The translations under genes and the position numbers were made by a program. A stretch of DNA of 64,000 bases from Bacilli bacterium (GTDB lineage: Bacteria > Bacillota_I > Bacilli_A > RFN20 > CAG-826). The notes under the pieces are model-generated. The model was not told the DNA's origin, did no database searches, and saw only the letters and a list, made by a program, of their open reading frames with translations. Shown here piece by piece: positions 23,296 through 63,366 of the stretch (its first letter is position 1; every line of letters starts with the position of its first letter). The stretch spans positions 28,908-92,907 of the forward strand of contig JBGVBY010000013.1 in assembly GCA_045226015.1 (NCBI GenBank). The letters run 5' to 3'.

Positions 23296-23900
23296 AAGAT
23301 TTCTCCTTTCAACTTATTAAAGTAATCTCTGAACATGGTTTTTGAATATTTAAGGTCATGTGCCTTTTGCAGTATCTTTAACTGCTTTTGAGTTAATTTG
23401 TGAGATTTATTCTCACATTTGAAGTAGAAGAGTAAGAAATTCCATAACCTCTTTTCTTCCATTGGGTACCAACCATACTTTTTGCTATCTTCAACATAAT
23501 TGAAGAAACATCGGTCATAGTTCTCTAATACCCTTTTGGCAACGTATTTGTCTTTGACAACATCGTGCCTTACAAAGTTCCTATCGCTTCCATAAACGAC
23601 TTTCATATCAGGTGATTCAGTAACGAAGTAGATCATCTTTTTATATTTAATGATGTCGTTCCATTCTTTTAACGTGTAGAACACACACTCCACGATATGT
23701 CCGTCAATGTCGAATTGCCTGGATGCATCCGCATTTTCATTCTTACTTCTTACAATGACTTTGAAGTCTATGTCTCCATAATCCTTAAGATATAGAGAAC
23801 TACCTTCTTGCAAGACACAAATGATTGAATGTAGTGGATATCCGATGGCACTTAGATTCGCGAGAAGCTCGGAGACGAACATATTAGTTATGTTCTTCAT
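23292..23900 (-). CDS. Putative Pol-beta-superfamily nucleotidyltransferase
   Basis: hGS-x(8)-DxD signature CVLQEGSSLYLKDYGDIDFKVIV plus a later beta-strand acidic residue (IVECVF). Confidence 0.6.
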   Translation of the reverse strand: MKNITNMFVSELLANLSAIGYPLHSIICVLQEGSSLYLKDYGDIDFKVIVRSKNENADASRQFDIDGHIVECVFYTLKEWNDIIKYKKMIYFVTESPDMKVVYGSDRNFVRHDVVKDKYVAKRVLENYDRCFFNYVEDSKKYGWYPMEEKRLWNFLLFYFKCENKSHKLTQKQLKILQKAHDLKYSKTMFRDYFNKLKGEIL

Positions 23901-24135
23901 TTACCTTTGCCTTAGCAGATTCAACGGCATTATTCCATTCAACGAATTCTGGTAAATCGCAGCCCATATGAGCAAGTGATTTTCTGATAATGGCAATTTC
24001 TTGTGTTAAGGTGTATTCCTTACGGATTTCACCAACGATAGCGATATCGTGTGGATTAACATCAGCGACTTTGCTCGCTGCGTCTCTTGCATCGTCAAGA
24101 GCTCTTTGATTTGGATTCTTTTTAATTAGTGACAT
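23884..24135 (-). CDS. Small tail-associated phage protein
   Basis: IRKEYTLTQEIAIIR.....EFVEWNNAVESAK resembles a family commonly found next to tail fibre genes. Confidence 0.5.
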   Translation of the reverse strand: MSLIKKNPNQRALDDARDAASKVADVNPHDIAIVGEIRKEYTLTQEIAIIRKSLAHMGCDLPEFVEWNNAVESAKAKVNEEHN

Positions 24136-25156
24136 ACCGTAATCTCCTTTCATAGTATTGGTATATTCGCTTTATCAAGTTGTAGTTATTACCTTTCTTG
24201 ATATGAGATATGTAACAGTCGACACATTGCTGAATTTTGGCAAGTGTCATTCTAGGATTTGAGATTTGCTTTTTAATTCTGCGCTTTGCTCTTTGGACAC
24301 TGGCTCTTTGAGCAGTCATTATGATTTTGCCTGTCTTGGAGTAGTGGTAACTGAATCCTAGAAACTTAGATGGTTGAGAGAGTTTAGCAATAAATGTTTT
24401 GTTCTTGTTGATTTTGAGACCTAATTTGTCGAGTTCTTCTTCAATGAACTTTAAGAGGTTGACCAGATGTTCTTTGCTGTGATGAATGATTTTGATGTCA
24501 TCCATGTATCGAATGTAGTATTTGATATGCCAACGTTCCTTGATGGCGTGATCTAAGTCGTTTAGCATTGATAACTCAATTAACTGAGATATTTGACTGC
24601 CAAGACCGATTCCTTCATCGCCTTTGAAACTGTCTATGATTTCAAACACTCTTTCTCTAGCCCAGTCATCACCGATTAGTTTTCCGATTTGTCTTTTGGC
24701 AATTTCGTGTTTAGTGCTACCAAAGAAATTTTTAATATCCAGTGATAGAACATATCCGTTTGCTTGATGATGTCGGAAAAACTTAATGAGATGGACTTTG
24801 AATCTTCTTCTAGCAAAATCTGTTCCTTTGCCTCTTTGACAAGCGCAATTGTCGTAGATGAAGTGTCTAACGACTTCTTTTGTTAGATAGTTATCGCAAA
24901 GTGACCTCTGGAATACTCTATCTTTTAATCTAGTTGCGACTATGTCTCTTACTTTAGGTTCTCTAACTTGGAATGTGATGTATCGGTCTATTTTATAGGT
25001 TCCGTTCATCAAAGAGTTGGATAATGCATATATGTTTTGGCAGCGATTCTTGTTATATCCAATAACGCTGTCTTTCCACATTACATTGTGATTACAATGA
25101 TTTAATGCTCTGTTCAATGCCTTATAAGAACATACAAGTTCTTTAATAGATGTCAT
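24122..25156 (-). CDS. DGR reverse transcriptase
   Basis: KVRDIVATRLKDRVFQ, NCACQRGKG, LDIKNFF, GIGLGSQISQ, YIRYMDD, FLG motifs; 344 aa with no maturase/endonuclease domain; TR and avd upstream. Confidence 0.95.
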   Translation of the reverse strand: MTSIKELVCSYKALNRALNHCNHNVMWKDSVIGYNKNRCQNIYALSNSLMNGTYKIDRYITFQVREPKVRDIVATRLKDRVFQRSLCDNYLTKEVVRHFIYDNCACQRGKGTDFARRRFKVHLIKFFRHHQANGYVLSLDIKNFFGSTKHEIAKRQIGKLIGDDWARERVFEIIDSFKGDEGIGLGSQISQLIELSMLNDLDHAIKERWHIKYYIRYMDDIKIIHHSKEHLVNLLKFIEEELDKLGLKINKNKTFIAKLSQPSKFLGFSYHYSKTGKIIMTAQRASVQRAKRRIKKQISNPRMTLAKIQQCVDCYISHIKKGNNYNLIKRIYQYYERRLRYVTN

Positions 25157-25304
25157 TGTTAATAGTGATAATTGTCATTGTCAGTTGGGCAAATCACATC
25201 AATGCACTTATTCTCCTAAATTAGGATTGGTCAATGACTCCTTGTGTAATTGTTTGGTCTTGATTTCTGTCATATAGACTTACTTTTAACAAATGGGTAT
25301 TAAA

Positions 25305-25406
25305 CAATCAGGGGACGACGCCATTAGAGTTGTTAGCGTTGTTGTTGTTACGGTTACCTGACGTGTTGACATTGATCGCATTGTTGACGTTGCCACGATT
25401 GGCGGT
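25305..25406 (-). ncRNA. DGR template repeat (TR)
   Basis: ACC GCC AAT CGT GGC AAC GTC AAC AAT ... AAC AAC AAC AAC GCT AAC AAC TCT AAT GGC GTC GTC CCC TGA TTG; 14 AAY codons; lies between avd and RT. Confidence 0.95.
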
Positions 25407-25415
25407 AAACAGTCA

Positions 25416-25832
25416 TTAACCATATCTTTTACTGTCGTTTTCAATCCAATTCTTCAAATCAGATTGAGCGGCAAGTATTAGACCTATCCAAGTTTTATGC
25501 TTTTTATCATTGATAGTTCCAAAGGTTTTATAAGCTACATCAATTAGAGTTAACATATTATGAGTTTCTGCGTACGCGAGTTTTTGAAACTTTCTACGTA
25601 ATTCGTAGTCACTTTTCTTAAACTCTTCTTTCACGTAAACAGAATTCGCTTTAATAGCGTTGGATAACATATTCATAGAACTATCGAGTATCTTTTGAGC
25701 AATTAACCAACGATATCTTTTAGGAATTACTTTCTCATTTGTGACTGCTTTAATGGTATAGGCATTTAGTTTGGTAACCGAAGTCCACCAAGCCATTTTA
25801 GTTTCGCCTCTTTCACTTTCAACGACTGACAT
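25416..25832 (-). CDS. avd: DGR accessory variability determinant (Avd-like four-helix bundle)
   Basis: 138 aa basic helical protein, IPKRYRWLIAQKI...AIKAN...R...Q..A...W...I pattern, between target and TR. Confidence 0.85.
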   Translation of the reverse strand: MSVVESERGETKMAWWTSVTKLNAYTIKAVTNEKVIPKRYRWLIAQKILDSSMNMLSNAIKANSVYVKEEFKKSDYELRRKFQKLAYAETHNMLTLIDVAYKTFGTINDKKHKTWIGLILAAQSDLKNWIENDSKRYG

Positions 25833-25868
25833 TCAGTGCATTATCTCTCCTTTCTTCTAAGATTTTTT

Positions 25869-25910
25869 ACACTCTATCGAGTGTTATTTATCAAACTACC
25901 TATCGGTAGT
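25869..25910 (-). other. Two tandem GATA-loop hairpins downstream of VR1
   Basis: Minus strand ACTACC-GATA-GGTAGT (25895-25910) and ACACTC-GATA-GAGTGT (25869-25884). Confidence 0.8.
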
Positions 25911-25917
25911 AATGATT

Positions 25918-27243
25918 TTATTCTTCAGCAGAATCTGCTGAGATGACACAAGCGGGGACGACGCCATAAGAGCCGTTAGCGCCGTAGTAGTAACGGGTAC
26001 CTGACGGGACGACATAGACCGCATAGTGGACGTGGCCACGAAAGGCGGTTCTCAACCACCAATAGCCGTAACTTGACCCAACAATTTTCTTACGAAGATT
26101 GTTTTGGTCAGTGCTATTGTCACTAGCGCTTAATCCGTTTGTAAATAAGGCAAGCCTTGTATCGCTTTCATCCGCGTCTGTAGAGAAGTTAACGTCCTTA
26201 CTACAAAGTAGGAAGAATTTATCGGTGAAATTATGTGCGCCTGTATTTCCGTAAGTGCCATTTGTGTTATCTTTCCAAACCTTATTTTCGGTGGATAAGA
26301 TATCTAAGAATGCTGGATCAATACCGTGCATAAATGGAACGCCAGCGTGGTTGCTTGGTCTTAAATCCCATTTAGTTTGTGGACTCCACCAGCCTGAACC
26401 GGTACCATTGAGATATTGTCTAATTGCGGATTCCATATAGTTATTGGAACCGTAAGAGACTCTATCGTTATGATTCTCACAACCAGAAGCGGTTAAGTCG
26501 CCATCACAATCAGTTACATCAGCAACGATTGCTAATCCGCTTTCAACGGATGCTCTATCTGCGCCATAGGTGGTAACAGTCACGCTTGTAGAAAGAGTGG
26601 TGTTGCTTGGTTTAGCACAATAGAATGGTTGAGTTGCGGTGAATGATAATGTGGAAGAGATTTTGTATTTACCTGCTGGTAATTGGCTTCCATCAGCTGC
26701 AGCCCATTTTGCTTCTTGAGCATCAAATTGCATTGAGATGAATGCATCGTGCATAACAAGTGTTAACTTGTCATTTTCAACGTGGGCGATATCGAACACT
26801 AATTCACTTGCGCTTTCGTGAACGGTAATGGTGTCATCAACACTTGGTGTTCCAGTAACAACAATGCCATATTCACTTAAAGTAACGAGTGCTCCGTGAT
26901 TGTCTTTCCAACCATCAGCGGTGTAGGTAAACACATAATCAATGTTTCCTGCTTCGTGTTCTTTTTCTAAGAATGTGGCTTCTGTGAACGCGATTGATAA
27001 ATCGTTGTTGCTTGGAGTGACAAGAATTGAATTTTCTTTTTCAACTGTGATTTGATCACCGACATCGAAGTAACTCTTGCCTTTGCCAGCATTAAGAATT
27101 TCCTTAATTCTCGCGAATGTCATAACACTTCCGTTGAAATCAAGATTCAAACCCATTAAAGCATTGGCAAGTGTTGCTCTTAGTTTCGCCTGTTCTTCTT
27201 TGTAGACTTTTGCGCCTAACATTTCCTTAAAAATTTCAGACAT
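25918..27243 (-). CDS. Primary DGR target: tail/receptor-binding protein with C-terminal DUF6273/C-type-lectin-like domain
   Basis: YGSNNYMESAIRQYLN...KFFLL...WWLRTA...GVVPACVI; in tail module; VR1 at 3' end. Confidence 0.85.
   Translation of the reverse strand: MSEIFKEMLGAKVYKEEQAKLRATLANALMGLNLDFNGSVMTFARIKEILNAGKGKSYFDVGDQITVEKENSILVTPSNNDLSIAFTEATFLEKEHEAGNIDYVFTYTADGWKDNHGALVTLSEYGIVVTGTPSVDDTITVHESASELVFDIAHVENDKLTLVMHDAFISMQFDAQEAKWAAADGSQLPAGKYKISSTLSFTATQPFYCAKPSNTTLSTSVTVTTYGADRASVESGLAIVADVTDCDGDLTASGCENHNDRVSYGSNNYMESAIRQYLNGTGSGWWSPQTKWDLRPSNHAGVPFMHGIDPAFLDILSTENKVWKDNTNGTYGNTGAHNFTDKFFLLCSKDVNFSTDADESDTRLALFTNGLSASDNSTDQNNLRKKIVGSSYGYWWLRTAFRGHVHYAVYVVPSGTRYYYGANGSYGVVPACVISADSAEE
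25954..26049 (-). repeat. DGR variable repeat VR1
   Basis: 96-nt ungapped match to TR with 19 mismatches, all at TR adenines. Confidence 0.97.
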
Positions 27244-27261: not shown

Positions 27262-28332
27262 TTATTCAACTTCAGTTATGTCAGTTACTGCGAGCCAGAC
27301 ACCTTCGCCTCTAACAACGATTCTCCAGTCATAGACTTTCGATTCGTCCATATCGGTAATAGTGTTAACACCAGTAATTCCTGCTATTTTGTTTTCTGCC
27401 ATTGTTTGTGCCTCTGCTTTGGTATAGACATCAGAAGCATTTGCTTTGGTGTCTACTGCGTCTTTTAAGACCTTACCTTGTTTAGCACTCAATGGTTTAT
27501 TTGTAATCTCGGATGTGAGATTATCGATGATGTCACTAACACTGACTTTGCTAGTGGTAATTCCATCAATGAGAGATTTGTTATTTTTGATGTAAGTAAC
27601 GATTTCTTGGACAGTGTCTAAGTCAGTATCATTACTTGCAATTAACGCGAGAATTGTCGCAATTTTTGCATCTAACACCTTACCTTGATTAGCGGATAAT
27701 GGCTTTGTGGTGGAGGTATCATTTAAGGCATCTACGATATTTGCAATCTTGATATAAGTTTGGTCAATGATTGCTCCGTTTTGGTCTTTAGCAGCCTTAC
27801 CACAAGTTGTGTCACCATTTTTGATTTTAAGAATCTCATTATTGGTTAACGCTAATTCCGCTTTAGTGGCATAAGTTGTCTTGATTACGTTTCCGTCACC
27901 ATCTCTTAATGCTTTATAGGCTGAGATAGTTCCGTTGATGATATCACTTCTTAAGGTTGCGATATTTGCGTTGATCGTGACAATTGCCGCTTGAATGGTA
28001 GAGATGCTAGTTCCTTGCGTAGTAGTTAATGTTTGTAATGCCTGGACTTGTGACATCAATCTTGAGTAGTTGAGTGTGTCAGTCTCAAGAGTCAATACTC
28101 TAGCTGCTAAAGCAGTTAATGCTTGGTCTAACGACACGATGTCAGCTTCTAAGGTATCATTATCACTAGCGTGTTTTTGTCTTATTGCTTCGATTAAATC
28201 GTGTAAGAAGTAGAGACCTTCATAGAACTTCTTTTTGATAGTTTCAGAGTCTAGTTTTGCTTCTGATGTATTGTCAGGCAAAGACTTAGGCGTAATGAGG
28301 TCTAGTTGAGCTCTTTCTTGTTCAAATGTCAT
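27262..28332 (-). CDS. Tail fibre / fibre-adaptor protein
   Basis: Coiled coil plus two copies of D.L......KPLSA.QGKVL tail-fibre repeat. Confidence 0.65.
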   Translation of the reverse strand: MTFEQERAQLDLITPKSLPDNTSEAKLDSETIKKKFYEGLYFLHDLIEAIRQKHASDNDTLEADIVSLDQALTALAARVLTLETDTLNYSRLMSQVQALQTLTTTQGTSISTIQAAIVTINANIATLRSDIINGTISAYKALRDGDGNVIKTTYATKAELALTNNEILKIKNGDTTCGKAAKDQNGAIIDQTYIKIANIVDALNDTSTTKPLSANQGKVLDAKIATILALIASNDTDLDTVQEIVTYIKNNKSLIDGITTSKVSVSDIIDNLTSEITNKPLSAKQGKVLKDAVDTKANASDVYTKAEAQTMAENKIAGITGVNTITDMDESKVYDWRIVVRGEGVWLAVTDITEVE

Positions 28333-28333
28333 A

Positions 28334-31300
28334 TTACTTCACTCCTTTCATAAGCAAACTATATGAGTAGATAATATCGAGCTTGGATAAGACCATTCTT
28401 GTTCCTTCATCGTTAGAGAAGATGAATCTCATAAACCCGACTTTACTAATGTTTTTATAGCGGTTGTAAATATGTGGTAACAAGTCGTTGGAGAAGTGGA
28501 TTTTTTCGAAGTTGAGACCTTCAAATGATAATTGTCTTGCGCCACCAACTTCTTTAACTGCAACTTTGAATCCAGCGTATGCACGGCTCGCTATATAACC
28601 GACGTTCATCATTGATGCGATTTGGCTATCGTTAATGATTGACCACATATGAATTGTTTTTTGGTATAAGTCATGACCGAAGTTGAATGGTTTTGTTACG
28701 AAGAATGAATTGACATTCACCTTTTCGGTAATGACACCTTGATATGTGCCTGTTCTACCTTTGTAATAGATAAGGTCGAGTGGCATCATAACAGTTTCGT
28801 TGTTAACGCTCTTTAGAGGTAATCCAACTTTGAATTTCTTACCGCCACCAGCAGCATCAGCAACATCCATAATGTATGCATTTCTAACTGCATTGACTCT
28901 AAATGACATTCTTAATGAGATAACACCTGTTAGGTTGACTTCGTTTTCGAATTCATCAAGGATTTTGAATCTATAATCGAATGCTTGTGAAGTTGGAACT
29001 CTCTTGAGCTTGTATTTTGTATCATCTCTTACTTCGGTAATTGTCTTTGTGATGTTATCGAAGAAAACAACTTTGTAACTGTAGAAGAGAAGAGATGTGT
29101 CGACCATTCTTTCGTAATCAATCTCGCCTTGAGCGGTGTATGGCTTAATAACGATTTCGTTATTGATACCATCAATGACACCAGCGTAAGCAGTTTGATC
29201 GAATGATACTAATCCGTTTGCTATTGCGTTTTCTCTAGTTGCTTTATCAATGAATAAGCCCATATTTGCATATACTTGGCTATCTTCAGTAATATCGCCT
29301 GTAATAGCAGAGATTTTATTTAATAGATGGAATTCATTACCGGCTTTGACTTTATCGGCGTATGTTTGTGAAACAACGATTTCATCGGTATTTGCATCAA
29401 TGCTTAGTGTTGTACCACCGAGACCGACATAAGTTCTTGGCTTATCTTTTCTTTCAATTGATGAATCTTCCATAAATCTGGAGATATTTCCTTGTTTATC
29501 AGAGAAGTATAATTCATCATCAATTTCGAAGAAGTAGTAGGCATCAATGTTGTCACAGAAATACCACTCATATTCGCTATTTTCATCGCGGAGAGTGTAT
29601 TCACCGACATATAAGCCTTCATCAGTTCTTACGAGTAATTTCTCTTTATACTGAGAGATAATCGTATAATCTAAATCATTATTCTTTAGTAACTTATTAT
29701 TGATATGTGAAGATACGTCATATGTGTATTTCGCATTGTTATAAGTTGTTTCTTTAGAGGTAATAGCCTTTAATCCGTTTTTGGTAAGCACTAAGGTTTC
29801 TCCAACAAAGTTGATAATTGAATATGGAGAGATAGCACCTGAGCCACCATTTGGATTAACTTCGAAGCAAGGATATGCTTCTTCGGCAAGTTCACCTTCA
29901 CTGACAAGATTTCCATCGTAACTTGAGGCATTAACTAATTGTTGCTGTCTTGTATAGATGGTTGCTTCGTGATTTGCTTTGCCTTTGAAGACTAATAATG
30001 TTCCATCACGGTAGATGTCATATCCTTTGACTGGAGAATTTTCACTACCATATTTGCAGTAGTCCAAGTCAGAGAAGTATGTTAGGTCTCTATCTTCTTC
30101 AGTATCGTAGTTCTCAACTTGAGAAGAATTGACTTGTGAAGAGTGCCAGTCCATATTTGGATAGTCTTTGTTACCACTGATGAACAATCTCTTGTTATAG
30201 ATGATTCCGAAATGGCATTTGTTGATTCTATCGGCATACCCAGGAACGTGATGAGGGAATTTAGCAATAATGTTGCCATCTCCATCGATTGGATTCACTG
30301 GATCATCCCATAAGACTAATCCGCCGTTTTCAATGGTCGAGCCATCGACTTCACTTGTTGCACCGAGTTTGATATAACCAATGCAGTCTCCATTGGCATT
30401 ATTGCCTGTGTAGACATTTAATCCGTATGTTGAGTGTTCTTGGTTATTGTCAACTGAGATAAGGTTTCTATGGAATAATGGAAGTTGTGTAGTTGGTGAG
30501 AACTCAATAGTCGCCTCTTCATGTGTGACACTAGCAACGTTAAACGCTACTCTATATGGATTTTCTTCAACAATACCGCTGTCATAAGGCATTGAGATGA
30601 TAATTGAGTATTCTTGTGTTTTAACAACACCTTGAGATGTGTAAGAAACTAAGACATTTAATCTTCCACCTGACCTTAATAAAGTTCCTAGTGGTGGATT
30701 ACTTGTTTCAAACCCAGCAACATCCATCCATTCGGTGTCTTTGAATAATGCCTGGACTGTTAATCCTTTAGCATTAAAGATATCTCCAACACGATAATTG
30801 TATGGATCTTGTTCAGAATCGAATTTTAATCTAATATCAACCAACTCTAAGTTTGGTGTAACCGCGATCGATAATGTCTCGGAACAGCTTTCGTTTGCAT
30901 CATATGGGTTAACCGCTTGAATTGTGACTGATTTAACACCTAAATTAGTGGATGCGAAGCTCACTTCGTTGTTTCCGTTTAAGGCTAATTCAGTAGTGAT
31001 ATTTGGAGCGGTGAATGTAACTTGTTCTTCGTATCCATTTTCAAACACACCATAGACAACAAGAGGAGTAATAGAGAATACTGTTCCATTAGTAACAGAT
31101 GTATTTAATAAAGAAGTATCTAGTCTTAATGAGACCATTGATGGAGCAGCAATTGTGATGCTGTAAGTTGCAGTTTGAGTAACACCGCCTTCGGTATAAA
31201 CAACTGTAACTGTCTTTGTTCCATCGTTGTCATCAGTAAATGCGACGGATTTATAAGCATCATAGTCAGTGGTGAATCCACTTGTTAAAACGCCTTCATA

Positions 31301-34300
31301 ACCATCGTTATAAGTAGTTTCTATGATAAGTCCTTCAGTAGTGAATTTATCACCATATAAGAAGGATGTTTTATGTGTAGATGCCACTCTAATTGAAATG
31401 CCAGTTAAGGCTCTTGCGACGACAGTTAAAGTACCGACTTCGCAAGTCTTAGTAACGCCTTCGTATGTATAAGCAACAATAAGTTTCTTTCCATTATCTG
31501 AAGTAGAAACTGCTGCTGTATAGTATTTTTCATCAGTATTGATGTAGACTTTGCATTCAGTTAACGCTAAGTCTCTATTACTTAAAGTTCTATTAAAAAC
31601 TGCACTAACAACTAAATCTGCTAAATCAAGTGATTGACCTTCAACGTATGAAAGCATTGCGCTTAAATCGTCTGGATCAGTTGATTCGACATTGATAGAT
31701 GCTAATGTGATAGCATTTGCAGTTAAAGTGACACTGGATGTTTTTTCTTGTCTAGAAACACCAACACCCATTTCGTATCTTGCAGTAATAGTGTTATTTC
31801 CTGTGATAAGGACTTGACCATCGCTGATATTAAAGACTGCATCAGAACTGACGTCACTAGTTGCTGGATAGTTGCTATCGTTTTCATCAGTAGATTTCAT
31901 TGTCTTTGTAACACTTAAATTCTCTAATGCGATAGTGTCACCAGCGTATAATGTTCCGCTGTAATAAGAAGCATCTAATGAAATTGAATCTAAATAGATA
32001 CAATGAATCGTAAATGTTGAGTATTTGGTTTCTCCACCAAAAGACATTCCAACGGTAACGTTTTCAACTTTGCTTGTGATAGTAAGCGAATCAAGACTTA
32101 AAGCAAGGTCATATGTAGTGCCACTGATAGTGACTTTATTACCAGTTGCAATTGTGAGTTCGTATTCATCTTCATCATTGAATGTAACTGTAAGTGAATG
32201 ACCGGCTAAAGTGAATTGACTACCATAGTTAACAGCGACTTTACTAACATCTAAAACAACTGATGCAAGAGCCTTAACTGTGACTGTTAAGTAGTTTTGC
32301 TTTGTGACACCAGCTTCGGTATATGAGAACCAAACATCATGAGTTAAACCATCATTGTTGTCTGGAGTCATTGCTGTATGACCAGTAATTGTGACTTTAG
32401 AAATATCATCGACGTTTACTGAACCTGCTTCATCATTTTCGCCATCGTGTGTGTAGAAACGTTTGATTGTGAGTTGAGTTAAATCTAAATCTTGACCTCT
32501 GTTGAATTTATTTGGACTTCTTGAACTTAAAATAGAAATGCCGTGCAAGATAGAAACTCTCACAGTATATGTAGCAGTCTTGCCACCAAATGAGACTGTG
32601 ACAGTGTTATCACCCATATCATCTTTAGTCCATTTAGAACCAACCTCTTTAACTCTTTCACCATCATCTAAAACGCAGATGTCATATAAACCTCTAGCGA
32701 TTGTTTTATTTCCGCCATATTCGTATGATGCAGTGACTGTAATATGGTTATTTTCGTTAATATAATCAGTGAAATCTTCACCGGCTCTAGTCCAACGTAA
32801 AAGACCAGTTGAACTACCAGCATTAACACTAATTGAATTTAATTTATCGTATTTTGCGGTTAAAGTAGCTTCATCTTCAATAATGTCGCTATTATAAGCA
32901 ACTTCTAAATCTTCTCCGTTTGTTTCAACAATAATAGAGAAATTACTAGAAACTGCTGTGATATCTTCGCCAAAGACTTGACCATCTAAAGAGGTGGAGA
33001 AGTCTACCTCTTTATTTGTTAAACCAGAGTGCATTGTTGCTTTAACAACGATGCCAGCAGCTGAGAATACTGATCCTTCAACGAATGTATCATTCCAACC
33101 GCTTAAATCAACGCTTGTGATTTCATCTGGATAGTCTTCAACAACTGAAATATTATAAGTTGTACTGACTGTATCACCAATAGTAGCGGTGACTGTGACA
33201 GCGTGTGTGCCAATTTCCATATTGTCTGGAGCACTAACACTATATTCGCTTGCGTTTAAGGCTCTTTCGCTACCATCAGACATATGAGCTGTGACAATTA
33301 AACCACCAGCTGAGAATGTTGGAGCAGAACCTGAATAAACGAATTCTGTTTTATAGTTTGAACAAGTAATGGAATCGAGTGTAATAACCTCGACTTCATA
33401 TGTTTGAGTGATTGTATTTCCTTTATGAGTAACACTGACACTAACCTCGTATGTTCCTTTTTTACCGCGATTGACATTAGATGTATCAACATTAACAGCA
33501 AAATCAGAATTACCAGCTAAAGGAATCTCAGTTTCTTGAGTAGTAGTGGTTGTAACAAAGATTTTTAATCCAGTTGTAAGACTACCGGTACTACCTTTTA
33601 AGAACTTCGTGATTTCGCTTGGAACATATAAACGAACATTGGAAATACCATTGACAGTGACATTATATGTCGCGGTTTGACCACGATATTTAACAGTGAC
33701 TGTTTTAGTTCCAATAGTAGTTAAATCAGGCTCAACGATTTCAATTTTGTTGGATGGAACTGAGTATGTGCCTGCTTCACCATAGTCAGCAGTTACTGTT
33801 AATCCACTAGAAGAGAATGATTCATTAGTGTTATAGACAGTTTTATATGTACCACCTAAAGAGATACTTTGAGCATCTCTAACAATCTTAGTAACTGTAA
33901 CAGTCTTGGTTAAAGTGGTATTTGCATCTCGTGCAGTAAATGTCCAAGTGTTATTTCCTAATTCTTTTGGTTGTGAAGTCCAAGTGAAGTTAGCGCTTGT
34001 GGCTGAAACAGTGGTTTCTGATCCATCTGAGTATTTGAAAGTAACTTGAGTAGGAATTGCTGCATCCGGCTCAATTAAATATTTATAGTAAACTTTGGAA
34101 TTTTCAGTTGCGATTCCAGAAGCATAATCTAAGACAGTAATGTTATAACTTGTGGATTTTCCACCATAGGAAATATTGACTGTTTTAGTACCTGGAGTAG
34201 ATGTGCTAGGTGCAGTAAATTGGGCATCTGCTGTAACATCATATGTTCCACCTTCATTTCCACCGAATAATGAATGATAATACCAATGTGAATATACTCT

Positions 34301-35047
34301 AACATTAGTTTTATCTAATGTTTCATTCATATAGTATGTGTGTTTTGCTGTTCCATGTGTTGCGGTAATTGAGTTTAAGGTTAATGGATAAATGTAAACA
34401 TTTCCTAATTCAAAAGAAACAGTTTTTTCAGTCCAAATTGCTGGCGAACCAACTCCGGCACCGGGTCTCGATTCATCAGAATAAACAATCTCTACATATA
34501 TTCTGTGATACCCACCCTCGTAATATATTCTGCTATTTTCGGACTCAACTTTTGTACTCCCAACTTTAACATCAGTTGTACCTCCATAATATCCACTCTG
34601 TTTATATGTATGGTTTTTTGTTGCATTGAATGGAATTGTTAAATCACAGTATACTACCAGATTTCTCGCCTCAATCTCTGCATAATTATATGTTGTACTA
34701 GATCCATAATATCCACTTACTTGATTATAGAAATCAATGGTTCTAACTATTAAATTATCAATATAAATTTTTAACTTATATAATCTGACAGTTTTTGTTG
34801 TGTTTACACCAAATCCACCATTCATTTTTGATTGAGCAACTAATGAATCTGCAAGTGTTAATTCTAAAGACAGTTCATCAAGCGAAACTTGGTATCTTCC
34901 ACTGCTTGGTATACTTGCTTCCTCACAATTTCCGTATGCTAAAGCAGTATAATCTCTCAATGTTCCAGTAAGGCGAGCTTTGAGTGCATTGTTAGATTTC
35001 CAAGTACCAATTGAAACTAAATCAGAAGACCATGTAGAATCAGACAT
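28334..35047 (-). CDS. Giant tail protein: about 14 Ig-like repeats fused to C-terminal part of tail nozzle/stabilisation protein
   Basis: Repeats of type L.SI....Y.T.F..G..F...GL.V.A.Y.DG...G.KTVTV.Y.G....Y.ITV at about 30600-34390; C-terminal INKC..G..YNKRLFISGNKDYPN..WHS...YFSDL..GSE..P..G..L.VFK; start refined to ATG 35047 behind AAGGTG. Confidence 0.75.
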   Translation of the reverse strand: MSDSTWSSDLVSIGTWKSNNALKARLTGTLRDYTALAYGNCEEASIPSSGRYQVSLDELSLELTLADSLVAQSKMNGGFGVNTTKTVRLYKLKIYIDNLIVRTIDFYNQVSGYYGSSTTYNYAEIEARNLVVYCDLTIPFNATKNHTYKQSGYYGGTTDVKVGSTKVESENSRIYYEGGYHRIYVEIVYSDESRPGAGVGSPAIWTEKTVSFELGNVYIYPLTLNSITATHGTAKHTYYMNETLDKTNVRVYSHWYYHSLFGGNEGGTYDVTADAQFTAPSTSTPGTKTVNISYGGKSTSYNITVLDYASGIATENSKVYYKYLIEPDAAIPTQVTFKYSDGSETTVSATSANFTWTSQPKELGNNTWTFTARDANTTLTKTVTVTKIVRDAQSISLGGTYKTVYNTNESFSSSGLTVTADYGEAGTYSVPSNKIEIVEPDLTTIGTKTVTVKYRGQTATYNVTVNGISNVRLYVPSEITKFLKGSTGSLTTGLKIFVTTTTTQETEIPLAGNSDFAVNVDTSNVNRGKKGTYEVSVSVTHKGNTITQTYEVEVITLDSITCSNYKTEFVYSGSAPTFSAGGLIVTAHMSDGSERALNASEYSVSAPDNMEIGTHAVTVTATIGDTVSTTYNISVVEDYPDEITSVDLSGWNDTFVEGSVFSAAGIVVKATMHSGLTNKEVDFSTSLDGQVFGEDITAVSSNFSIIVETNGEDLEVAYNSDIIEDEATLTAKYDKLNSISVNAGSSTGLLRWTRAGEDFTDYINENNHITVTASYEYGGNKTIARGLYDICVLDDGERVKEVGSKWTKDDMGDNTVTVSFGGKTATYTVRVSILHGISILSSRSPNKFNRGQDLDLTQLTIKRFYTHDGENDEAGSVNVDDISKVTITGHTAMTPDNNDGLTHDVWFSYTEAGVTKQNYLTVTVKALASVVLDVSKVAVNYGSQFTLAGHSLTVTFNDEDEYELTIATGNKVTISGTTYDLALSLDSLTITSKVENVTVGMSFGGETKYSTFTIHCIYLDSISLDASYYSGTLYAGDTIALENLSVTKTMKSTDENDSNYPATSDVSSDAVFNISDGQVLITGNNTITARYEMGVGVSRQEKTSSVTLTANAITLASINVESTDPDDLSAMLSYVEGQSLDLADLVVSAVFNRTLSNRDLALTECKVYINTDEKYYTAAVSTSDNGKKLIVAYTYEGVTKTCEVGTLTVVARALTGISIRVASTHKTSFLYGDKFTTEGLIIETTYNDGYEGVLTSGFTTDYDAYKSVAFTDDNDGTKTVTVVYTEGGVTQTATYSITIAAPSMVSLRLDTSLLNTSVTNGTVFSITPLVVYGVFENGYEEQVTFTAPNITTELALNGNNEVSFASTNLGVKSVTIQAVNPYDANESCSETLSIAVTPNLELVDIRLKFDSEQDPYNYRVGDIFNAKGLTVQALFKDTEWMDVAGFETSNPPLGTLLRSGGRLNVLVSYTSQGVVKTQEYSIIISMPYDSGIVEENPYRVAFNVASVTHEEATIEFSPTTQLPLFHRNLISVDNNQEHSTYGLNVYTGNNANGDCIGYIKLGATSEVDGSTIENGGLVLWDDPVNPIDGDGNIIAKFPHHVPGYADRINKCHFGIIYNKRLFISGNKDYPNMDWHSSQVNSSQVENYDTEEDRDLTYFSDLDYCKYGSENSPVKGYDIYRDGTLLVFKGKANHEATIYTRQQQLVNASSYDGNLVSEGELAEEAYPCFEVNPNGGSGAISPYSIINFVGETLVLTKNGLKAITSKETTYNNAKYTYDVSSHINNKLLKNNDLDYTIISQYKEKLLVRTDEGLYVGEYTLRDENSEYEWYFCDNIDAYYFFEIDDELYFSDKQGNISRFMEDSSIERKDKPRTYVGLGGTTLSIDANTDEIVVSQTYADKVKAGNEFHLLNKISAITGDITEDSQVYANMGLFIDKATRENAIANGLVSFDQTAYAGVIDGINNEIVIKPYTAQGEIDYERMVDTSLLFYSYKVVFFDNITKTITEVRDDTKYKLKRVPTSQAFDYRFKILDEFENEVNLTGVISLRMSFRVNAVRNAYIMDVADAAGGGKKFKVGLPLKSVNNETVMMPLDLIYYKGRTGTYQGVITEKVNVNSFFVTKPFNFGHDLYQKTIHMWSIINDSQIASMMNVGYIASRAYAGFKVAVKEVGGARQLSFEGLNFEKIHFSNDLLPHIYNRYKNISKVGFMRFIFSNDEGTRMVLSKLDIIYSYSLLMKGVK

Positions 35048-35048
35048 A

Positions 35049-35795
35049 CTATGCACCCACCTTTCTTAAAGAACTAATTACAATTTCCATATTATTTAAG
35101 TCAGACAAAGTCTTTGGTTTGATGGATGTATCGAAATCCCATTCCCAAAAGCGTGTAGTTCTGACATCAACGCCATTATCAATATATGTGCCACTAACGA
35201 GTTTGTTCTTTCTCCATTGAGTCATTAAATTGACATCGTCATAAGCACTAACTAGGTTGGTTGGAGCATCTTTATAAGTGACACCGATAGAAGTAGTTGG
35301 AATATAGGTATAATCACTATCTTCAACCTCTACGAGTTCATAACTAGGAGCAATTCTTAACATTAAGTATTTGTTGCCACCTAAAATATAGAGCCTTTTT
35401 CCGCTTGCTCTCATAAGTGATCGGTAATCTTCTAATTCATAAGTGCTAATCTTAATGAAATAGGCATCTAAGAATGAATATTCTTTACCGATTTTGAATC
35501 CTTCGTATAAGAACTTTCCAATATGGAAAATGTGATGCTCATAGCCATCTTCTGCCTCGAATTTGATGTAGCTGTTAACTCTACCTTCAACTTTAGCGAT
35601 TTGCTCCCAAGCATCACGAGTTTGGTTAATTCCATCTTTGAAGATAATATTCAAAATATCTCTAGCGTTATTGTTGGCAAGATTAGTTTCCGCTTCTTGA
35701 TAGTCAACACCGGCAAAAGAGCCAGTAGTGAATGTCTTTCTACTGGAAAGGTTTTGATTCGCTAATGTGATTTTGAACTTATCCTTATTTGCCAT
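35049..35795 (-). CDS. N-terminal part of tail nozzle/stabilisation protein (P22 gp10/T7 gp12-like role)
   Basis: FAGVDY...RD..N...G..TR...IFHIG..LY...KRLYILGG..Y...YIPTT.I..YDDVNLM..RKN pattern; follows adaptor gene. Confidence 0.6.
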   Translation of the reverse strand: MANKDKFKITLANQNLSSRKTFTTGSFAGVDYQEAETNLANNNARDILNIIFKDGINQTRDAWEQIAKVEGRVNSYIKFEAEDGYEHHIFHIGKFLYEGFKIGKEYSFLDAYFIKISTYELEDYRSLMRASGKRLYILGGNKYLMLRIAPSYELVEVEDSDYTYIPTTSIGVTYKDAPTNLVSAYDDVNLMTQWRKNKLVSGTYIDNGVDVRTTRFWEWDFDTSIKPKTLSDLNNMEIVISSLRKVGA

Positions 35796-35804
35796 AACAA
35801 TTAC

Positions 35805-36431
35805 CTAGAGTTTGTATTTAGCGCGAGTTTCGGATTGATAGACGATAGTTTGTCTTTGATCAACCTCGTTCACGAATTGTTCGAAGTAGTTGAGATAGCG
35901 TTTACATCTATCTGGATCAACATCTTCCCAAAGTTCAGATTTGACAAAATAGTTAATGTAATTACAAAGTTCATCGGTTAATCCATATTTGCTTTCGAGG
36001 TCATCTTCGCTGTCGATGTCAGTCTCGGTGAAGTTTGGAATCTTTCTTTCGTATGCAATATGAATAGTGGAGTTAAGACCATATCCTAAATAGAGCATAT
36101 TTTGTCCAACAACTGACCAACCAATCCAATATGGTTTACCGTCACGCATAATGAAAACTGAACGGATTTTTCTAATATCTTTGATAGAAGAGATATCATA
36201 GATATCCTTTGTTTCATCAGCGGTTAAAGTTGTATGTTTCAATTCAATTTTTCCCGCAGTAATTAAACGAGAAATTGCTTTATTGATAGAAATGAACACA
36301 TTATTGATTTCAGCGGTGTAATCTGGATTCTCGATGAGAGTTCCATCACGTAAAAATTCCACTTTCAAATTAGTGTCATCGTTATGTAGAGTTTCTTTCA
36401 AACAATTGATTACTAAGTCAGCGAATCTCAT
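35805..36431 (-). CDS. Head-tail adaptor / tail tubular protein A-like
   Basis: About 208 aa, INKAISRL, downstream of capsid gene in podoviral order; start refined to ATG 36431. Confidence 0.55.
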   Translation of the reverse strand: MRFADLVINCLKETLHNDDTNLKVEFLRDGTLIENPDYTAEINNVFISINKAISRLITAGKIELKHTTLTADETKDIYDISSIKDIRKIRSVFIMRDGKPYWIGWSVVGQNMLYLGYGLNSTIHIAYERKIPNFTETDIDSEDDLESKYGLTDELCNYINYFVKSELWEDVDPDRCKRYLNYFEQFVNEVDQRQTIVYQSETRAKYKL

Positions 36432-36554
36432 AATTTGTCCTTTCTTTAATTTTTGGTATATTCGGCGCTTCGTATAGGAATTGCACCTATAAGGCGGTGA
36501 CGTGCCTCTCTTAGAGCGAAGCATGTATGCCGTACATTACATACGGCAGGGTTA

Positions 36555-36875: not shown

Positions 36876-38126
36876 CTAGTCAGAGACTGCGTTAGCAGCA
36901 ACGAGTGTAACTGCAGAAGCGCTCTTCTTGACTTGGACAAAGATAGTTGCATCTGCTGCTGTACCTTGGACGATATCAACACCAACGAATGATCCAGTTG
37001 TCCAAACTGTTGAAGCTAAGTGGTAACCACTACCTGCTTTAGCAGTGACTTTGAGTAATGCGCCAGGAGCAACATTACCAATCACTTCGATTTCAGCAAT
37101 GTTTGTACCTTTTGTTAAGGTTGGAGTGATTAAACCAGATGCGCTGCGGTAATCAGTTCTTGAAGCATCAGTAACTGGGCTACCAACTGCGGAACCATAA
37201 CACTCATATCTAACGAGAGCTTCGTCTCTTAACACTCTGGTAGCAAAGCCATCGTGTTTCCAAGCGAGAGAGCCACGTTGATTTAATGGGTCACTGGAAC
37301 CTGAGGAACCAGGTGCCTTATAGATGATATCGAATCCGCCAGCGGCATCTTCACCATCAATGGCAACAGCACCAAACGCTTCTTTACCAAATGCTAAGCA
37401 GCAGTGGACGTTTGTGCTTGGGTTTGGACACTCGTTAGAAACGATGAAACGGAATCCGCCATAAGCGCCAATTTCGCCTTTTTCGATTTTAACTGTGTCT
37501 CTGTATTTTTCGATGTCGGTTAAGGATCCACTAGATGTATCACCACGGACATCAGCTTCGATTTCTGGTGGAATTACAAATCTGTAATAACCATCTTCGA
37601 ATGGTTCAACGCCTCTACGTTTGAAGTATGCTTTGATTTGATTCACATCGGAGAGATGGAAATTGTAAGTAGCGCTGGACAAACCTGCTCTGTTTACTGC
37701 ACCATTAGCATATTTAACGTTTAATCCGTTGAAGATTTTTTGGCATAATAAGCCTCTCATTCTATTTCTAGCGTTCTTACCAAGTAATTTGCCAGAGATA
37801 GCGAGTTGCTTATCAAGACCGTATTTAAGCATCTTGTCGGTTAATGGAACAAAGTTACCTTCTTGGTAAGCCTTGACCATGAAATCGACTAAGGAATACT
37901 TAAGACCAGCAGGTGTAACACCTTCAATCAAGTGATCTGTGGTGTCTGGGAGATCTTTATACATTCTCCAAGAGTATTCATCACTTGTTGGGTCGTAATT
38001 AACTTTTTCTGCGTGTTTGAAGAAGACATCTTCTTTTAATTCGTCTAATTCATACATCACAACTTTTTGTGTGAACTCTTTTTGTTCTTGTGAAAGTTCA
38101 CTGGATGTCATTTTGACTTCGTTCAT
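36876..38126 (-). CDS. Major capsid protein, N4-gp56-like family, with C-terminal extra beta domain
   Basis: FFKHAE.......R.Y..L......LIEGVTP.G, GEIG.YGGFRFIVS, G.SDPLNQRGS..WK motifs. Confidence 0.85.
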   Translation of the reverse strand: MNEVKMTSSELSQEQKEFTQKVVMYELDELKEDVFFKHAEKVNYDPTSDEYSWRMYKDLPDTTDHLIEGVTPAGLKYSLVDFMVKAYQEGNFVPLTDKMLKYGLDKQLAISGKLLGKNARNRMRGLLCQKIFNGLNVKYANGAVNRAGLSSATYNFHLSDVNQIKAYFKRRGVEPFEDGYYRFVIPPEIEADVRGDTSSGSLTDIEKYRDTVKIEKGEIGAYGGFRFIVSNECPNPSTNVHCCLAFGKEAFGAVAIDGEDAAGGFDIIYKAPGSSGSSDPLNQRGSLAWKHDGFATRVLRDEALVRYECYGSAVGSPVTDASRTDYRSASGLITPTLTKGTNIAEIEVIGNVAPGALLKVTAKAGSGYHLASTVWTTGSFVGVDIVQGTAADATIFVQVKKSASAVTLVAANAVSD

Positions 38127-39044: not shown

Positions 39045-41156
39045 TTAATCCTTTTTAGACATTTCTTCTGCGGAAGGTAGTCCAGAACCACCTTGTCCCT
39101 CTTTGAGACGTTTAATTTCTTCATCTCTATTGGTGACCATTTCTTTAGCGGCTCCCAGAGATTCATTGAAGGATTTACGCATACTTTGATTGACTGCTTC
39201 TTTTTGAGCGGCAAGCGCTTCGAGTTGTTTAACTCTAGATAATGCCATTTGAAGCATTCCGGTCATTTCTTGAATTTGTTGTTTTAATTGGAAATTCTCG
39301 GATTTTCTTTGTTTAGCAATTAAGACACGGATATCTGCTTTCTTGGATTCAGACATGAGTGGATTTAAGTTCAACCACATTTCGAATGAATCTGGAGACA
39401 TCTTTTCATAACCACCATTTAAGAAGAGGTTATTGATTAAGTCAGTGTCGATAATTTCACTGTACTTAGTGCCTTTGCCTGGCTCACAAATGATATCGAA
39501 GATGTGACCTCTAAGTTCTTCTTCAGGATTGATCTTCCTACGTTGAACTTTGGTTGGCTCACCTTTTCTCTTTGCAGCCTCTTTAGCTGGGATTTGAGTA
39601 CCATCCTCAAGAGTAATTGGTTCATCAGAATTTAGAGCTTCTTTATAGGCTTCTTGTTCTTCTTGGTACTCTGCATCAGTTAACTCATATAAGTAGTAAC
39701 TTTCAGGATAGTAGTGTTTGTAGAATTGAAGTCTGATTTCCGCACAGTCGACTAAGAATCTCCAGTAACGGTTTTGTAATACTTCAATACGTTTATTTCT
39801 TTGTTCTTCTAAGATTTGTAACGCATACGCGGTAACATCTTTTAAGTTAGAAGAAGAATCAACGAGTTCATTGGTTCCGGTAATCATCTTTGTAATATCA
39901 ATGATAGATGTCACATAATTCATTACTTGACCATTTAATTGGTTGCCTTCGAGACGCTTGATACCAAAGTTATTTCCTGGAGTGTAATCCACGAAGATTC
40001 CACCAGGTGCTCCAGTCCAAGTTTGTCCGTTAGCAGCGCCTTCTTTCATAATAATGGTTGCCCAAGCTGTATCTTGAATCTCTTTAGCGACCATTGAGAT
40101 TATGAAGTTGATAATCTTTTGATTATCTTGGATGTTTTCAATCACTGAACGCCCATATAAGCACTTTCTACGAGGAATGAGAGATAACGCGGCAATTGGA
40201 TATAAAGAGAATTTCTCTTTTTCTTCAGTGTGTTTCTCTTCGCTTGAATCTTCTAAGTCTTCATCTTGGAAGGTTGGAACTTCAGGATCGAGTTCGTATA
40301 TTTCAATATCATCAGGTGAATATCCATTTTTCTCGGCTTCATCTTTGATTTTGAGTTTCTTTTCAGTAAGGTTTGGATTTAATGAAATTGGATCACAGAG
40401 TTGAACAGTTCTAGTTGAACGAGTCCAATAGACTTCTCCTTCGATTCTAAAGAAACGAGTAAGAACGGAACAAAGTCCGCTATCCATTAAATCTTTATCT
40501 GTATCATATTTTTCTTTATTAGATGTATAGTCGTCAGGAACGATGAGAGAGATGATTTTGTCATAATCTTTCATGTTTTTAGATACTGTTGCTCTAACAG
40601 CCTTGACTTCCATTCTCTTTTCAAAACCAACCCATTTTTGTTTTTGAATAGAGTCTAATCTAGGATTAGCACATCTAAAATCTTCTAAAGCGATAACATC
40701 TAGTGCCATTGAGCCTTTTTGTTTGCCTCTAATAGTGGTGACGTCATCACTCCAGTAGTGGTATAAAAAGCCAGTTGCACCAACCAGTGAATCTCTAACA
40801 ACGTCATCGCAGTATTGATTCATCTTGATAGATTTTTGTACATATTCATCAAATTTCTTTAATCCATCAGTTGACATATTTTTGTCAAAACAAGTGAAAT
40901 TCAATGTGACTGTGGTGCCTAAGATGGTCGCGTGTTGAGAATCAACAACCCAACCACAAATGTTTTCTGTTGCGCGCGGCATATCATCATCAAAATTTTG
41001 AGTTTGACGACCTTCGTACATCGCCCACCATTCAGGGATACAGGCTGAAAAACCTTTGTTCTCCATGTAGTTTTGATGTTTTTCAAAAAGAATCGCATCA
41101 ATCGATTTTTGATTTTCAATACTCTTAGTTGGAACTGGTTTTTTAGTATTGCTCAT
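39045..41156 (-). CDS. Portal protein (podoviral type)
   Basis: 703 aa, WWAMYEGRQ, between terminase and scaffold, C-terminal coiled coil. Confidence 0.8.
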   Translation of the reverse strand: MSNTKKPVPTKSIENQKSIDAILFEKHQNYMENKGFSACIPEWWAMYEGRQTQNFDDDMPRATENICGWVVDSQHATILGTTVTLNFTCFDKNMSTDGLKKFDEYVQKSIKMNQYCDDVVRDSLVGATGFLYHYWSDDVTTIRGKQKGSMALDVIALEDFRCANPRLDSIQKQKWVGFEKRMEVKAVRATVSKNMKDYDKIISLIVPDDYTSNKEKYDTDKDLMDSGLCSVLTRFFRIEGEVYWTRSTRTVQLCDPISLNPNLTEKKLKIKDEAEKNGYSPDDIEIYELDPEVPTFQDEDLEDSSEEKHTEEKEKFSLYPIAALSLIPRRKCLYGRSVIENIQDNQKIINFIISMVAKEIQDTAWATIIMKEGAANGQTWTGAPGGIFVDYTPGNNFGIKRLEGNQLNGQVMNYVTSIIDITKMITGTNELVDSSSNLKDVTAYALQILEEQRNKRIEVLQNRYWRFLVDCAEIRLQFYKHYYPESYYLYELTDAEYQEEQEAYKEALNSDEPITLEDGTQIPAKEAAKRKGEPTKVQRRKINPEEELRGHIFDIICEPGKGTKYSEIIDTDLINNLFLNGGYEKMSPDSFEMWLNLNPLMSESKKADIRVLIAKQRKSENFQLKQQIQEMTGMLQMALSRVKQLEALAAQKEAVNQSMRKSFNESLGAAKEMVTNRDEEIKRLKEGQGGSGLPSAEEMSKKD

Positions 41157-41475
41157 TTATGTGACTCCCTTGGAAAAGATACGCTTCCATATTCTTTTTG
41201 ACGTTGGTCTGATTTTTAACCACTTCGTTATGGATATTGACCGCAATTTGATTAAGTTCTTTCTTAATTTCTTTGCGCATTTCTTCCTTAAATCCTTCAA
41301 ACGAAGCTTTTAAGTCGGAAATTTCTGATTTTAATTCAGCATTTTCGCTCTTTAAGTTGTCAAAAATGCCTTGAATTTCATCTATTTTTAGTCCAGCAAG
41401 TTCGCACATATGGAAAAATTCATTTAATTTTTTCTCATCTTTTCGCGAAATTACGATATGATTGACTTTTTCCAT
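41143..41475 (-). CDS. Hypothetical coiled-coil protein
   Basis: 110 aa, overlaps flanking genes in operon. Confidence 0.55.
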   Translation of the reverse strand: MEKVNHIVISRKDEKKLNEFFHMCELAGLKIDEIQGIFDNLKSENAELKSEISDLKASFEGFKEEMRKEIKKELNQIAVNIHNEVVKNQTNVKKNMEAYLFQGSHINEQY

Positions 41476-50149: not shown

Positions 50150-50533
50150 ATGAACGAATTTACAGTCAGAGAAGAAGTTTTTGAACTAACAGAAATGATG
50201 AAGTCAAAATTTACTGCCTTTATCATTCCGTGTAAATCAGTCGATGACTTTAAAGTTAGACACGAGCAAATTCGTAAAGCTAATCCAAAGGCAAAACATG
50301 TTGTTTATGCCTATAGGATTGGAACAAATAGTAAATCTACTGACGATCAAGAACCTAAAGGTACAGCAGGTAGACCTCTACTCGAACTTCTTACTAAGAA
50401 GAACATGAACAACACTGCGATTATCGTAGTGAGATATTATGGAGGAGTTCAACTCGGTGCTGGAAGGTTACTTAGAACATACGTCAATAGTGCGGTGAAC
50501 GCTTTTAATAAGGCTGAATTAATTGAGTTATAG
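50150..50533 (+). CDS. YigZ/IMPACT family protein (N-terminal domain)
   Basis: KSKF, H..YAYR, DDQEPKGTAG.P, VVRYYGGVQLGAGRLLRTY. Confidence 0.9.
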   Translation: MNEFTVREEVFELTEMMKSKFTAFIIPCKSVDDFKVRHEQIRKANPKAKHVVYAYRIGTNSKSTDDQEPKGTAGRPLLELLTKKNMNNTAIIVVRYYGGVQLGAGRLLRTYVNSAVNAFNKAELIEL

Positions 50534-50543
50534 GAGATAAATT

Positions 50544-51362: not shown

Positions 51363-51364
51363 TT

Positions 51365-52627: not shown

Positions 52628-52638
52628 CGGAGAAGAGA

Positions 52639-54114: not shown

Positions 54115-54201
54115 ATAAACGAAATAATTTAAAGAAAAATAACAAATAGGGATAATATCCCTATTTGATTTTTTATACTCTTTAGTAATATAATATTTGA
54201 T

Positions 54202-60629: not shown

Positions 60630-60757
60630 TTATTAATATATTTATATATATTACATTTTATTCAGATTGTTCCTATTTTTATCAAGGAACATTATAGGAG
60701 CAAAATAATTAGTAATTTTAATTATTTCTCACTATAATAGAGAGCGAGGATTTAGCT

Positions 60758-61501: not shown

Positions 61502-61557
61502 TTTAATAAGGAAAAATAAAAGGAACCATCAAGGTTCCTTGTTTTTTGTTTGTGATA

Positions 61558-63198: not shown

Positions 63199-63366
63199 AA
63201 CTGTTCTCCTTATCTTTACGAATGCATAGATATTGTATTAAAAGTAGCGTATTTATTCAATGAAATTGTGTGTACGCTGGTGATATATGCGATATTTTCG
63301 ATTTATATTGAATATTATATTATTAATAAGATAATATTAGAGTTGGAAATTAGGAGAAGTATTTAT

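Follow-up and report, generated by a model that had tools for sequence, protein, structure and literature searches.

Few parts of short-tailed phages are as conserved or as well studied as the nozzle, which has been treated as a single protein to which fibres dock. In T7 it is a hexameric ring of beta-propeller subunits that lies below the head-to-tail adaptor and closes the DNA channel. Most relatives make it as a single chain of ~900-1000 aa. The locus described here raises the question of whether such a subunit can be encoded by two genes, and of what is carried on the additional chain end. It lies in a 64,000-nucleotide stretch of a Bacilli bacterium genome (assembly GCA_045226015.1, contig JBGVBY010000013.1, positions 28,908 to 92,907), hereafter the window. 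Two adjoining genes on its minus strand code for proteins of 248 amino acids (aa; P0001) and 2237 aa (P0002), to which we gave the working names nozN and nozC. A preliminary description of this DNA had proposed that they are two parts of a nozzle gene, separated by an array of immunoglobulin (Ig)-like domains. Our analysis leads to the same reading, and we put the probability that the locus truly encodes a nozzle of two chains with an Ig arm at roughly 0.75.

The two genes and their family

Examination of the junction showed that the whole nozzle subunit is not encoded as one polypeptide, since a stop codon with a Shine-Dalgarno (SD) and ATG restart divides the two open reading frames (ORFs). 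Both ORFs lie where the preliminary description had placed them and are intact across 7.4 kb. As had also been claimed, the second gene has its own SD and its own ATG: the SD AAAGGTGG is followed by a 9-nt spacer that holds the TAG of nozN and then by the ATG of nozC, one base past that TAG. The nozC frame is closed just seven codons upstream of this ATG. A promoter and terminator scan gave nothing beyond chance, and no terminator was found between nozN and nozC.

A family hidden Markov model (HMM) of 855 states, built from 84 single-chain homologues of ~850-1100 aa, was run against the six-frame translation of the whole window. It matched at two places only, namely nozN (states 7-230, E 1.7e-59) and the end of nozC (aa ~1489-2237, states 213-855, E 5.5e-128). 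The proposal of a divided gene had called for two pieces that align to consecutive parts of one family, and this is what the model returned. The 248-aa protein had been presented as the N-terminal half of the nozzle; it is the N-terminal part, but it represents the first quarter of the protein (~230 of ~900 residues) rather than a half. The C-terminal motifs INKC, RLFISGN, YPN and YFSDL were found at the end of nozC, where they had been noted.

Searches with the separate pieces converge on the same proteins. An exhaustive HMMER search of a representative library with nozN gave 336 relatives. Roughly half are short proteins of 250-300 aa that stand alone, the closest ones among them, and the other half are the N-termini of 750-1240-aa proteins. 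The last 752 aa of nozC used as query retrieved proteins of 880-1120 aa. Two proteins, P0015 and P0016, are common to the two lists of relatives. Residues 1-231 of P0016 (915 aa) are 32% identical to nozN (E 4e-33), and its residues 331-614 and 768-915 match the end of nozC, whose C-terminal part is 33-42% identical to P0009 and P0016. By sequence homology, nozN and the end of nozC are consecutive pieces of one protein family. A BLAST comparison in which nozN had no similarity to P0009 (973 aa) had suggested a reading without any split; it was rejected, as P0009 is itself a split-type C-chain with a 262-aa partner encoded upstream.

The identity of this family was established by fold. An AlphaFold2 model of the single-chain P0016, computed from an 84-sequence alignment, has a mean predicted local distance difference test score (pLDDT) of 80.3 and a predicted template modelling score of 0.83, with low confidence around the junction (residues 244-330). 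A Foldseek search of the PDB with this model returned nozzle chains of short-tailed phages as top matches, with a probability of 1.00: cyanophage A4 (9k09_U, E 2e-22), Carin-1 (8ck1_A, E 3e-18), T7 gp12 (E 5e-16 to 1e-11), Kp9 (E 5.4e-16), SU10 (E 1.6e-11) and P22 gp10 (E 6e-8). Generic propellers of the DDB1 type rank after these nozzle chains. In BFVD, a collection of predicted viral structures, a gut-virome 'Stabilization protein' ranks first (E 7e-55), and 'Tail tubular protein B' is a frequent label among the other matches. By the predicted fold of its single-chain homologue, the family is the podophage nozzle.

Sequence profiles do not recover this relationship. Scans of both window proteins and six homologues against Pfam and PHROG gave no nozzle family; they returned Big_3, a sub-threshold crAss_MUZ_C match (15 bits vs 27) and, for one homologue, a weak phrog_3287 match. 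The P22 gp10 family Phage_stabilise (PF11134) was not among the matches of nozN, nozC and the six homologues at E <= 0.1, so that the relation to P22 gp10 is seen at the level of the modelled fold only. PDB sequence searches with nozN and with the C-terminal part of nozC gave no meaningful match, and an hhalign comparison of the family profile with the 'tail protein' gp10 of Bacillus phage Page was negative. A tblastn search of 50,697 phage records returned one match, an unannotated faecal contig.

In T7 gp12, for which structures are available (PDB 6R21 and 7BOY), the first 45 residues give platform strands and are followed by a seven-bladed propeller, with the nozzle tip inserted in a blade-3 loop; the fibre dock and the C-terminal platform come after the propeller (PMC6702177). 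The model of P0016 is consistent with an approximate division in which residues 1-231 would form the platform strands and three to four blades, the other blades lying after residue ~365. The modelled family resembles T7 gp12, cyanophage A4, Carin-1 gp44, SU10 and P22 gp10 in its platform strands, its propeller with excursions and its C-terminal domains. It differs from them in sequence, with 8-11% identity, and in the division of nozN and nozC into two genes with a 1490-aa appendage. The gut-virome 'Stabilization protein' A0A8S5MXY1 (859 aa) and the ~84 single-chain homologues (P0013-P0020, P0030 and others), whose hosts, where named, are Bacillota metagenome-assembled genomes (MAGs), are sequence homologues of both window proteins. 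In contrast to nozN and nozC they are single chains of ~750-1240 aa without Big_3 domains, and they carry a variable insert of 80-575 aa at the break site.

The break site, the Ig array and the variable tip

Among single-chain forms, the segment that varies most in length corresponds to D217-L393 of P0016; it ranges over those 80-575 aa, and most other segments vary by 10-50 aa. The break in the HMM match of the window (states 213-230) falls at the start of this segment. In nozC the break is occupied by a non-Ig domain of ~225 aa, which the preliminary description had likewise reported, followed by the Ig array. About 14 repeats had been expected between ~30600 and 34390, and a profile grown from one nozC repeat gave 14 matches of 80-105 aa over nearly the same interval (Table 1), with a median pairwise identity of 21%. 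Pfam assigns Big_3 (PF07523) to four stretches of nozC (E 2e-16, 60.5 bits vs a cut-off of 21.2). No Big_3 match was obtained in any of the 84 single-chain forms, and these domains are limited to split forms. All the split-type C-chains examined begin with an extra N-terminal domain, which is alignable among them, and most then carry Ig-like repeats as detected by the window-derived profile. An AlphaFold2 run on nozC aa 1-330 modelled the N-terminal domain as an all-beta sandwich (pLDDT 70.6).

Conservation is distributed unevenly along nozC. Identity to relatives is 12-46% over aa 1-225; in the four closest relatives it is 31-35% at the first Ig repeats, 65-75% at the last and 73-88% over aa 1486-1850 of the propeller. 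Because identity climbs in this way from the N-terminus of nozC to the propeller, the appendage has the character of a fibre whose anchor is conserved and whose distal tip is variable. A binding role for the N-terminal domain is suggested by its variability and its position.

A second, smaller dip in identity was observed inside the nozzle part of the protein. Over nozC aa 1851-2050 identity to close relatives is 58-60%, and the flanks are at 86-88% and 61-71%. Its probable counterpart in the single-chain forms is their second site of variable length (P0016 641-806, 91-358 aa), and it may represent an exposed tip or a fibre-dock domain.

A nozzle divided in two has been reported once, in the Pseudomonas podophage A1002, where a nozzle-base protein gp42 and a nozzle-rope protein gp39 together build the seven-bladed propeller and platform of a 'split nozzle', and where the N-terminal part of gp39 is a rope of 300 Å that binds eleven fibre dimers by beta-augmentation (PLoS Biol, November 2026; PMC13730344). 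In both phages a normally single nozzle protein is encoded as two chains, and the chain with the C-terminal propeller and platform bears a long N-terminal extension, which in A1002 includes an Ig-like domain. The differences are as follows: (i) nozN and nozC are adjacent and co-linear, whereas the genes of gp39 and gp42 are non-adjacent; (ii) the break comes after the first ~230 residues, whereas in A1002 most of the propeller precedes it and it falls in the fibre-dock region; (iii) the extension consists of 14 Ig domains and a terminal domain rather than a rope that docks separate fibre dimers; (iv) the host belongs to the Bacillota, whereas that of A1002 is Gram-negative; and (v) the arrangement is here the norm of a large uncultured clade. 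PDB sequence searches gave no similarity to gp39 or gp42, in a copy of the database that may lack the A1002 entries. The two splits look like independent events. The principle of a split nozzle is thus already known from A1002, and the present layout is undescribed for this group of Bacillota phages.

The comparison with A1002 gives rise to the alternative that has to be weighed most carefully. Like the nozzle-rope, the Ig array could be a scaffold that runs along or around the tail and docks either the 356-aa tail fibre or the 441-aa protein diversified by a diversity-generating retroelement (DGR), both of which are encoded directly 3' of nozC. The length of the C-chain, which is kept within 2189-2264 aa even in distant relatives, would be in keeping with a ruler or scaffold. 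However, the steep N-terminal drop in conservation better fits an exposed binding tip than a scaffold in contact with partners, the array consists of folded Ig domains and not of an extended strand, and a tail-tube gene like that of A1002 gp37 was not identified. We consider a docking scaffold unlikely.

Conservation of the division among relatives

The two-gene layout is shared by about 17 related contigs and MAGs, with N-chains 30-82% identical to nozN. At these loci (L001, L005-L017 and L022-L024) an N-chain of 248-288 aa is followed directly by the C-chain, which is 2189-2264 aa long in 10 of the 13 loci with a complete second gene. A scan of IMG/VR with a 10-sequence alignment gave twelve such loci (L005-L016) in which an N-chain of 248-288 aa, 35-82% identical to nozN, precedes a giant C-chain (complete in eight, 2189-2264 aa), one locus with chains of 288 and 978 aa (L017) and four with single chains of 880-1017 aa (L018-L021). 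At L001 a 262-aa protein, 38% identical to nozN, overlaps by one base a 973-aa homologue of the end of nozC. Three split loci were found in species-representative genomes, with C-chains of 2189, 2248 and 1392 aa; the records are labelled as a Bacilli MAG, an uncultured bacterium and an 'Escherichia coli' bin. In MAGs labelled Oscillospiraceae, Eubacteriales and Bacilli, the protein is a single chain of 862-944 aa. The split is the norm in a large uncultured clade and not a peculiarity of one phage. The Escherichia coli label belongs to L024 (CAVGNR010000014.1), a contig that bears a split nozzle of Bacillota-phage type, and is probably a binning or contamination artefact.

The split C-chains fall into length clusters: those of L001 and L017 have ~975 aa, those of ten loci have 2189-2264 aa, and a single one has 1392 aa. 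The length of ~2200 aa holds at an N-chain identity of 35%, where the window-derived Ig profile finds few repeats. This clustering suggests selection on the length of the arm.

In a tree of the N-terminal domain, one half contains 68 fused and 3 split forms and the other 57 split and 16 fused forms. The single-chain P0040 (1007 aa) is nested among split forms, and two apparently complete short proteins, P0034 and P0136, stand among single-chain forms. In most short homologues the end of the domain coincides exactly with the C-terminus of the protein; a few short proteins end inside the domain. We regard fission as the derived state because the structurally characterised outgroups are all single-chain.

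Could the 248-aa protein have become an independent virion or assembly protein, leaving the propeller of the large protein incomplete or completed in some other way? The poorly modelled residues around the junction of the single-chain homologue leave room for such a reading. However, the N-chain is as conserved among close relatives as the propeller of the C-chain (73-82% vs 73-88%), it is always encoded immediately upstream of the C-chain with coupled translation, and the family HMM detects no further nozzle-like gene in the window. Moreover, a propeller that lacks three to four blades would be expected to be unstable. We therefore judge an independent nozN to be very improbable.

Synthesis of one long polypeptide by recoding at the junction, through a +1 frameshift or stop read-through, would be in line with the one-base distance between the ORFs, with the few single-chain forms inside the split-dominated clade, and with L022 (8001-15398), where the C-chain ORF continues in frame immediately past the N-chain stop. 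It is opposed by a good SD and ATG at the correct spacing, by a shift window of only about seven codons, and by the N-chain ending exactly with its homology domain in most split forms. Related junctions retain an SD and a start codon, and their frame and overlap offsets vary (-16, -11, -8, -1, 0 and +1). Because frame and overlap vary among relatives, the junction speaks for separate, coupled translation and not for a conserved recoding signal, and recoding can hardly account for the locus.

Finally, in a metagenome-type assembly such as this one the stop codon might be put down to faulty sequencing or assembly, or to a mutation that recently inactivated the gene in a decaying prophage, and the preliminary description had named an erroneous stop as an objection to its reading. 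With stop and restart kept in many independent contigs (17 or more loci besides this one), a 248-aa protein of 96% identity (P0023) known independently, both ORFs intact and a conserved N-terminal domain in nozC that single-chain forms lack, this explanation can be set aside.

Prophage context and proposed architecture

The stretch is a prophage of a temperate short-tailed phage, in a Firmicute of the gut or rumen. It is bounded on the left by a tyrosine integrase gene and on the other side by host genes (Table 1); GC content drops to 29-35% near 50150, where the host housekeeping genes begin. On the minus strand the genes follow the order large terminase, portal, a scaffold-sized gene, capsid, a 239-aa gene, nozN, nozC and tail fibre. 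The position of the two genes in the structural module, after portal and capsid, is that of a podophage nozzle, and contig L001 has the same order. The 239-aa protein, a candidate head-to-tail adaptor by its position, has weak matches to phrog_13046 and phrog_2125 ('virion structural protein') and gave no match in a PDB sequence search; L001 and L002 carry a 242-aa gene at the equivalent position.

Two further features of the late region were observed. The tail genes are followed directly by a DGR cassette, whose likely variable target is a DUF6273 / Hoc-like protein. At the end of the late operon, a 1743-aa protein with an LPD38 domain and without PHROG match may be an internal or ejection protein of the podophage.

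Table 1. Position of the features discussed in the text (numbering of the window).
Feature	Position	Strand	Basis or remark
Tyrosine integrase	924-2069	-	Left limit of prophage
1743-aa protein	14576-19807	-	LPD38 domain (E 8e-26)
DGR cassette	23884-27243	-
Reverse transcriptase of DGR	24122-25156	-	RVT_1; phrog_1423 E 4e-79
441-aa DUF6273 / Hoc-like protein	25918-27243	-	Likely variable target of DGR
356-aa tail fibre	27262-28332	-	Pfam Phage_fiber_rpt E 2.7e-19; phrog_19602 'tail fiber'
nozC, 2237 aa	ATG 35047 to stop 28334	-	ORF
nozC aa 1485-2237, C-terminal three quarters of nozzle and stop	28334-30595	-	HMM states 213-855
nozC aa 1851-2050	28898-29497	-	Lower identity than flanks
nozC aa 226-1484, array of 14 Big_3-type Ig-like domains	30596-34372	-	Self-derived HMM and Pfam
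nozC aa 1-225, N-terminal beta-sandwich domain	34373-35047	-	AlphaFold2 model; proposed distal tip
Junction	35045-35064	-	SD 35057-35064; nozN TAG 35049-35051; nozC ATG 35045-35047
nozN, 248-aa N-terminal nozzle chain	35049-35795	-	Family HMM match
239-aa protein, candidate head-to-tail adaptor	35805-36524	-	Position only, between capsid gene and nozN
Major capsid protein	36876-38126	-	Closest to Bacillus Pagevirus podophages, 29% identity
Portal	39045-41156	-	Weak, sub-threshold SU10-portal match
Large terminase	41451-43238	-
Host genes (aminopeptidase P, FGGY sugar kinase, AddAB-type helicase-nuclease)	from ~50150 to 63999		Mark other prophage limit

Taken as a two-chain nozzle, the locus can be given the following architecture. 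The products of nozN and nozC would be translationally coupled and would together constitute the tail nozzle, the gene having been broken at the main insertion-tolerant site of its family. The platform strands at the N-terminus and the first blades would come from nozN, and the remaining blades and the C-terminal domains from the last ~750 aa of nozC. Judging from their homology, we infer that the two chains dock and physically complete one propeller, which would make up one nozzle subunit, six such subunits forming the ring. The break would free the N-terminus of nozC, with its ~1490-aa appendage of 14 Ig-like domains and a fast-evolving tip of ~225 aa, and the virion would then bear six flexible arms, one for each putative nozzle subunit. 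The length of an Ig domain is ~4 nm as a general figure, and at that value an arm would measure ~50 nm.

Each arm would be anchored by its conserved C-terminal end and would present a variable binding domain at its N-terminal tip, a built-in fibre with a polarity reversed relative to that of ordinary tail fibres. The Ig chain may exit from the tip of the tail, as the preliminary description supposed, or from its side. It may bind mucus, glycan or the host surface, and would then be the part that first, and reversibly, touches the host envelope or the polysaccharide or mucus of the gut or rumen. Adhesins with Ig-like domains (Hoc-type and Big-domain) on the virions of abundant gut phages confer epithelial adherence (Nat Commun 2026, PMC13370021); the nozC array differs in belonging to the nozzle polypeptide itself. 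For an adhesive role of the arm we see the chances as even.

Several observations weigh against this architecture or parts of it. The blades per chain were counted solely from the secondary-structure string of the homologue model, and the model of the N-terminal domain gave no significant PDB match and no recognisable fold, so that the domain is assigned neither to the lectins nor to the carbohydrate-binding modules. Besides nozC, the phage encodes a tail fibre and, close by, a DGR-diversified protein, so that host receptor binding need not fall to the arm. Split and fused forms are not cleanly separated on the tree, and well-supported branches force at least seven changes of state. Some of these changes are likely fragments or gene-calling artefacts, and genuine re-fusion may lie behind others; the gene may have been split and rejoined several times.

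The findings have consequences for the annotation and the study of these phages. A large uncultured group of gut and rumen Firmicute phages appears to divide its nozzle over two genes, with an Ig arm at the new chain end, which provides an annotation for hundreds of 'hypothetical' phage proteins of 250-300 aa and ~2200 aa, designates nozC aa 1-225 as a candidate specificity determinant and would be a naturally occurring case of two chains that rebuild one beta-propeller. Tentatively, and with the odds somewhat against it, nozzle fission could be seen as an evolutionary device by which a free N-terminus gives rise to six long receptor-binding arms of reversed polarity with a hypervariable tip, the ~1250-aa Ig length, retained in relatives with N-chains of only 35% identity, serving as a ruler matched to the host envelope or to the mucus or fibre matrix. 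If so, receptor-binding proteins would have, next to tailspikes and to fibres docked on the adaptor or the nozzle, a third mode of attachment to short tails, and one that is widespread in uncultured Bacillota phages. Together with A1002, these phages suggest that new tail architectures and host-range modules may have arisen repeatedly by nozzle fission.

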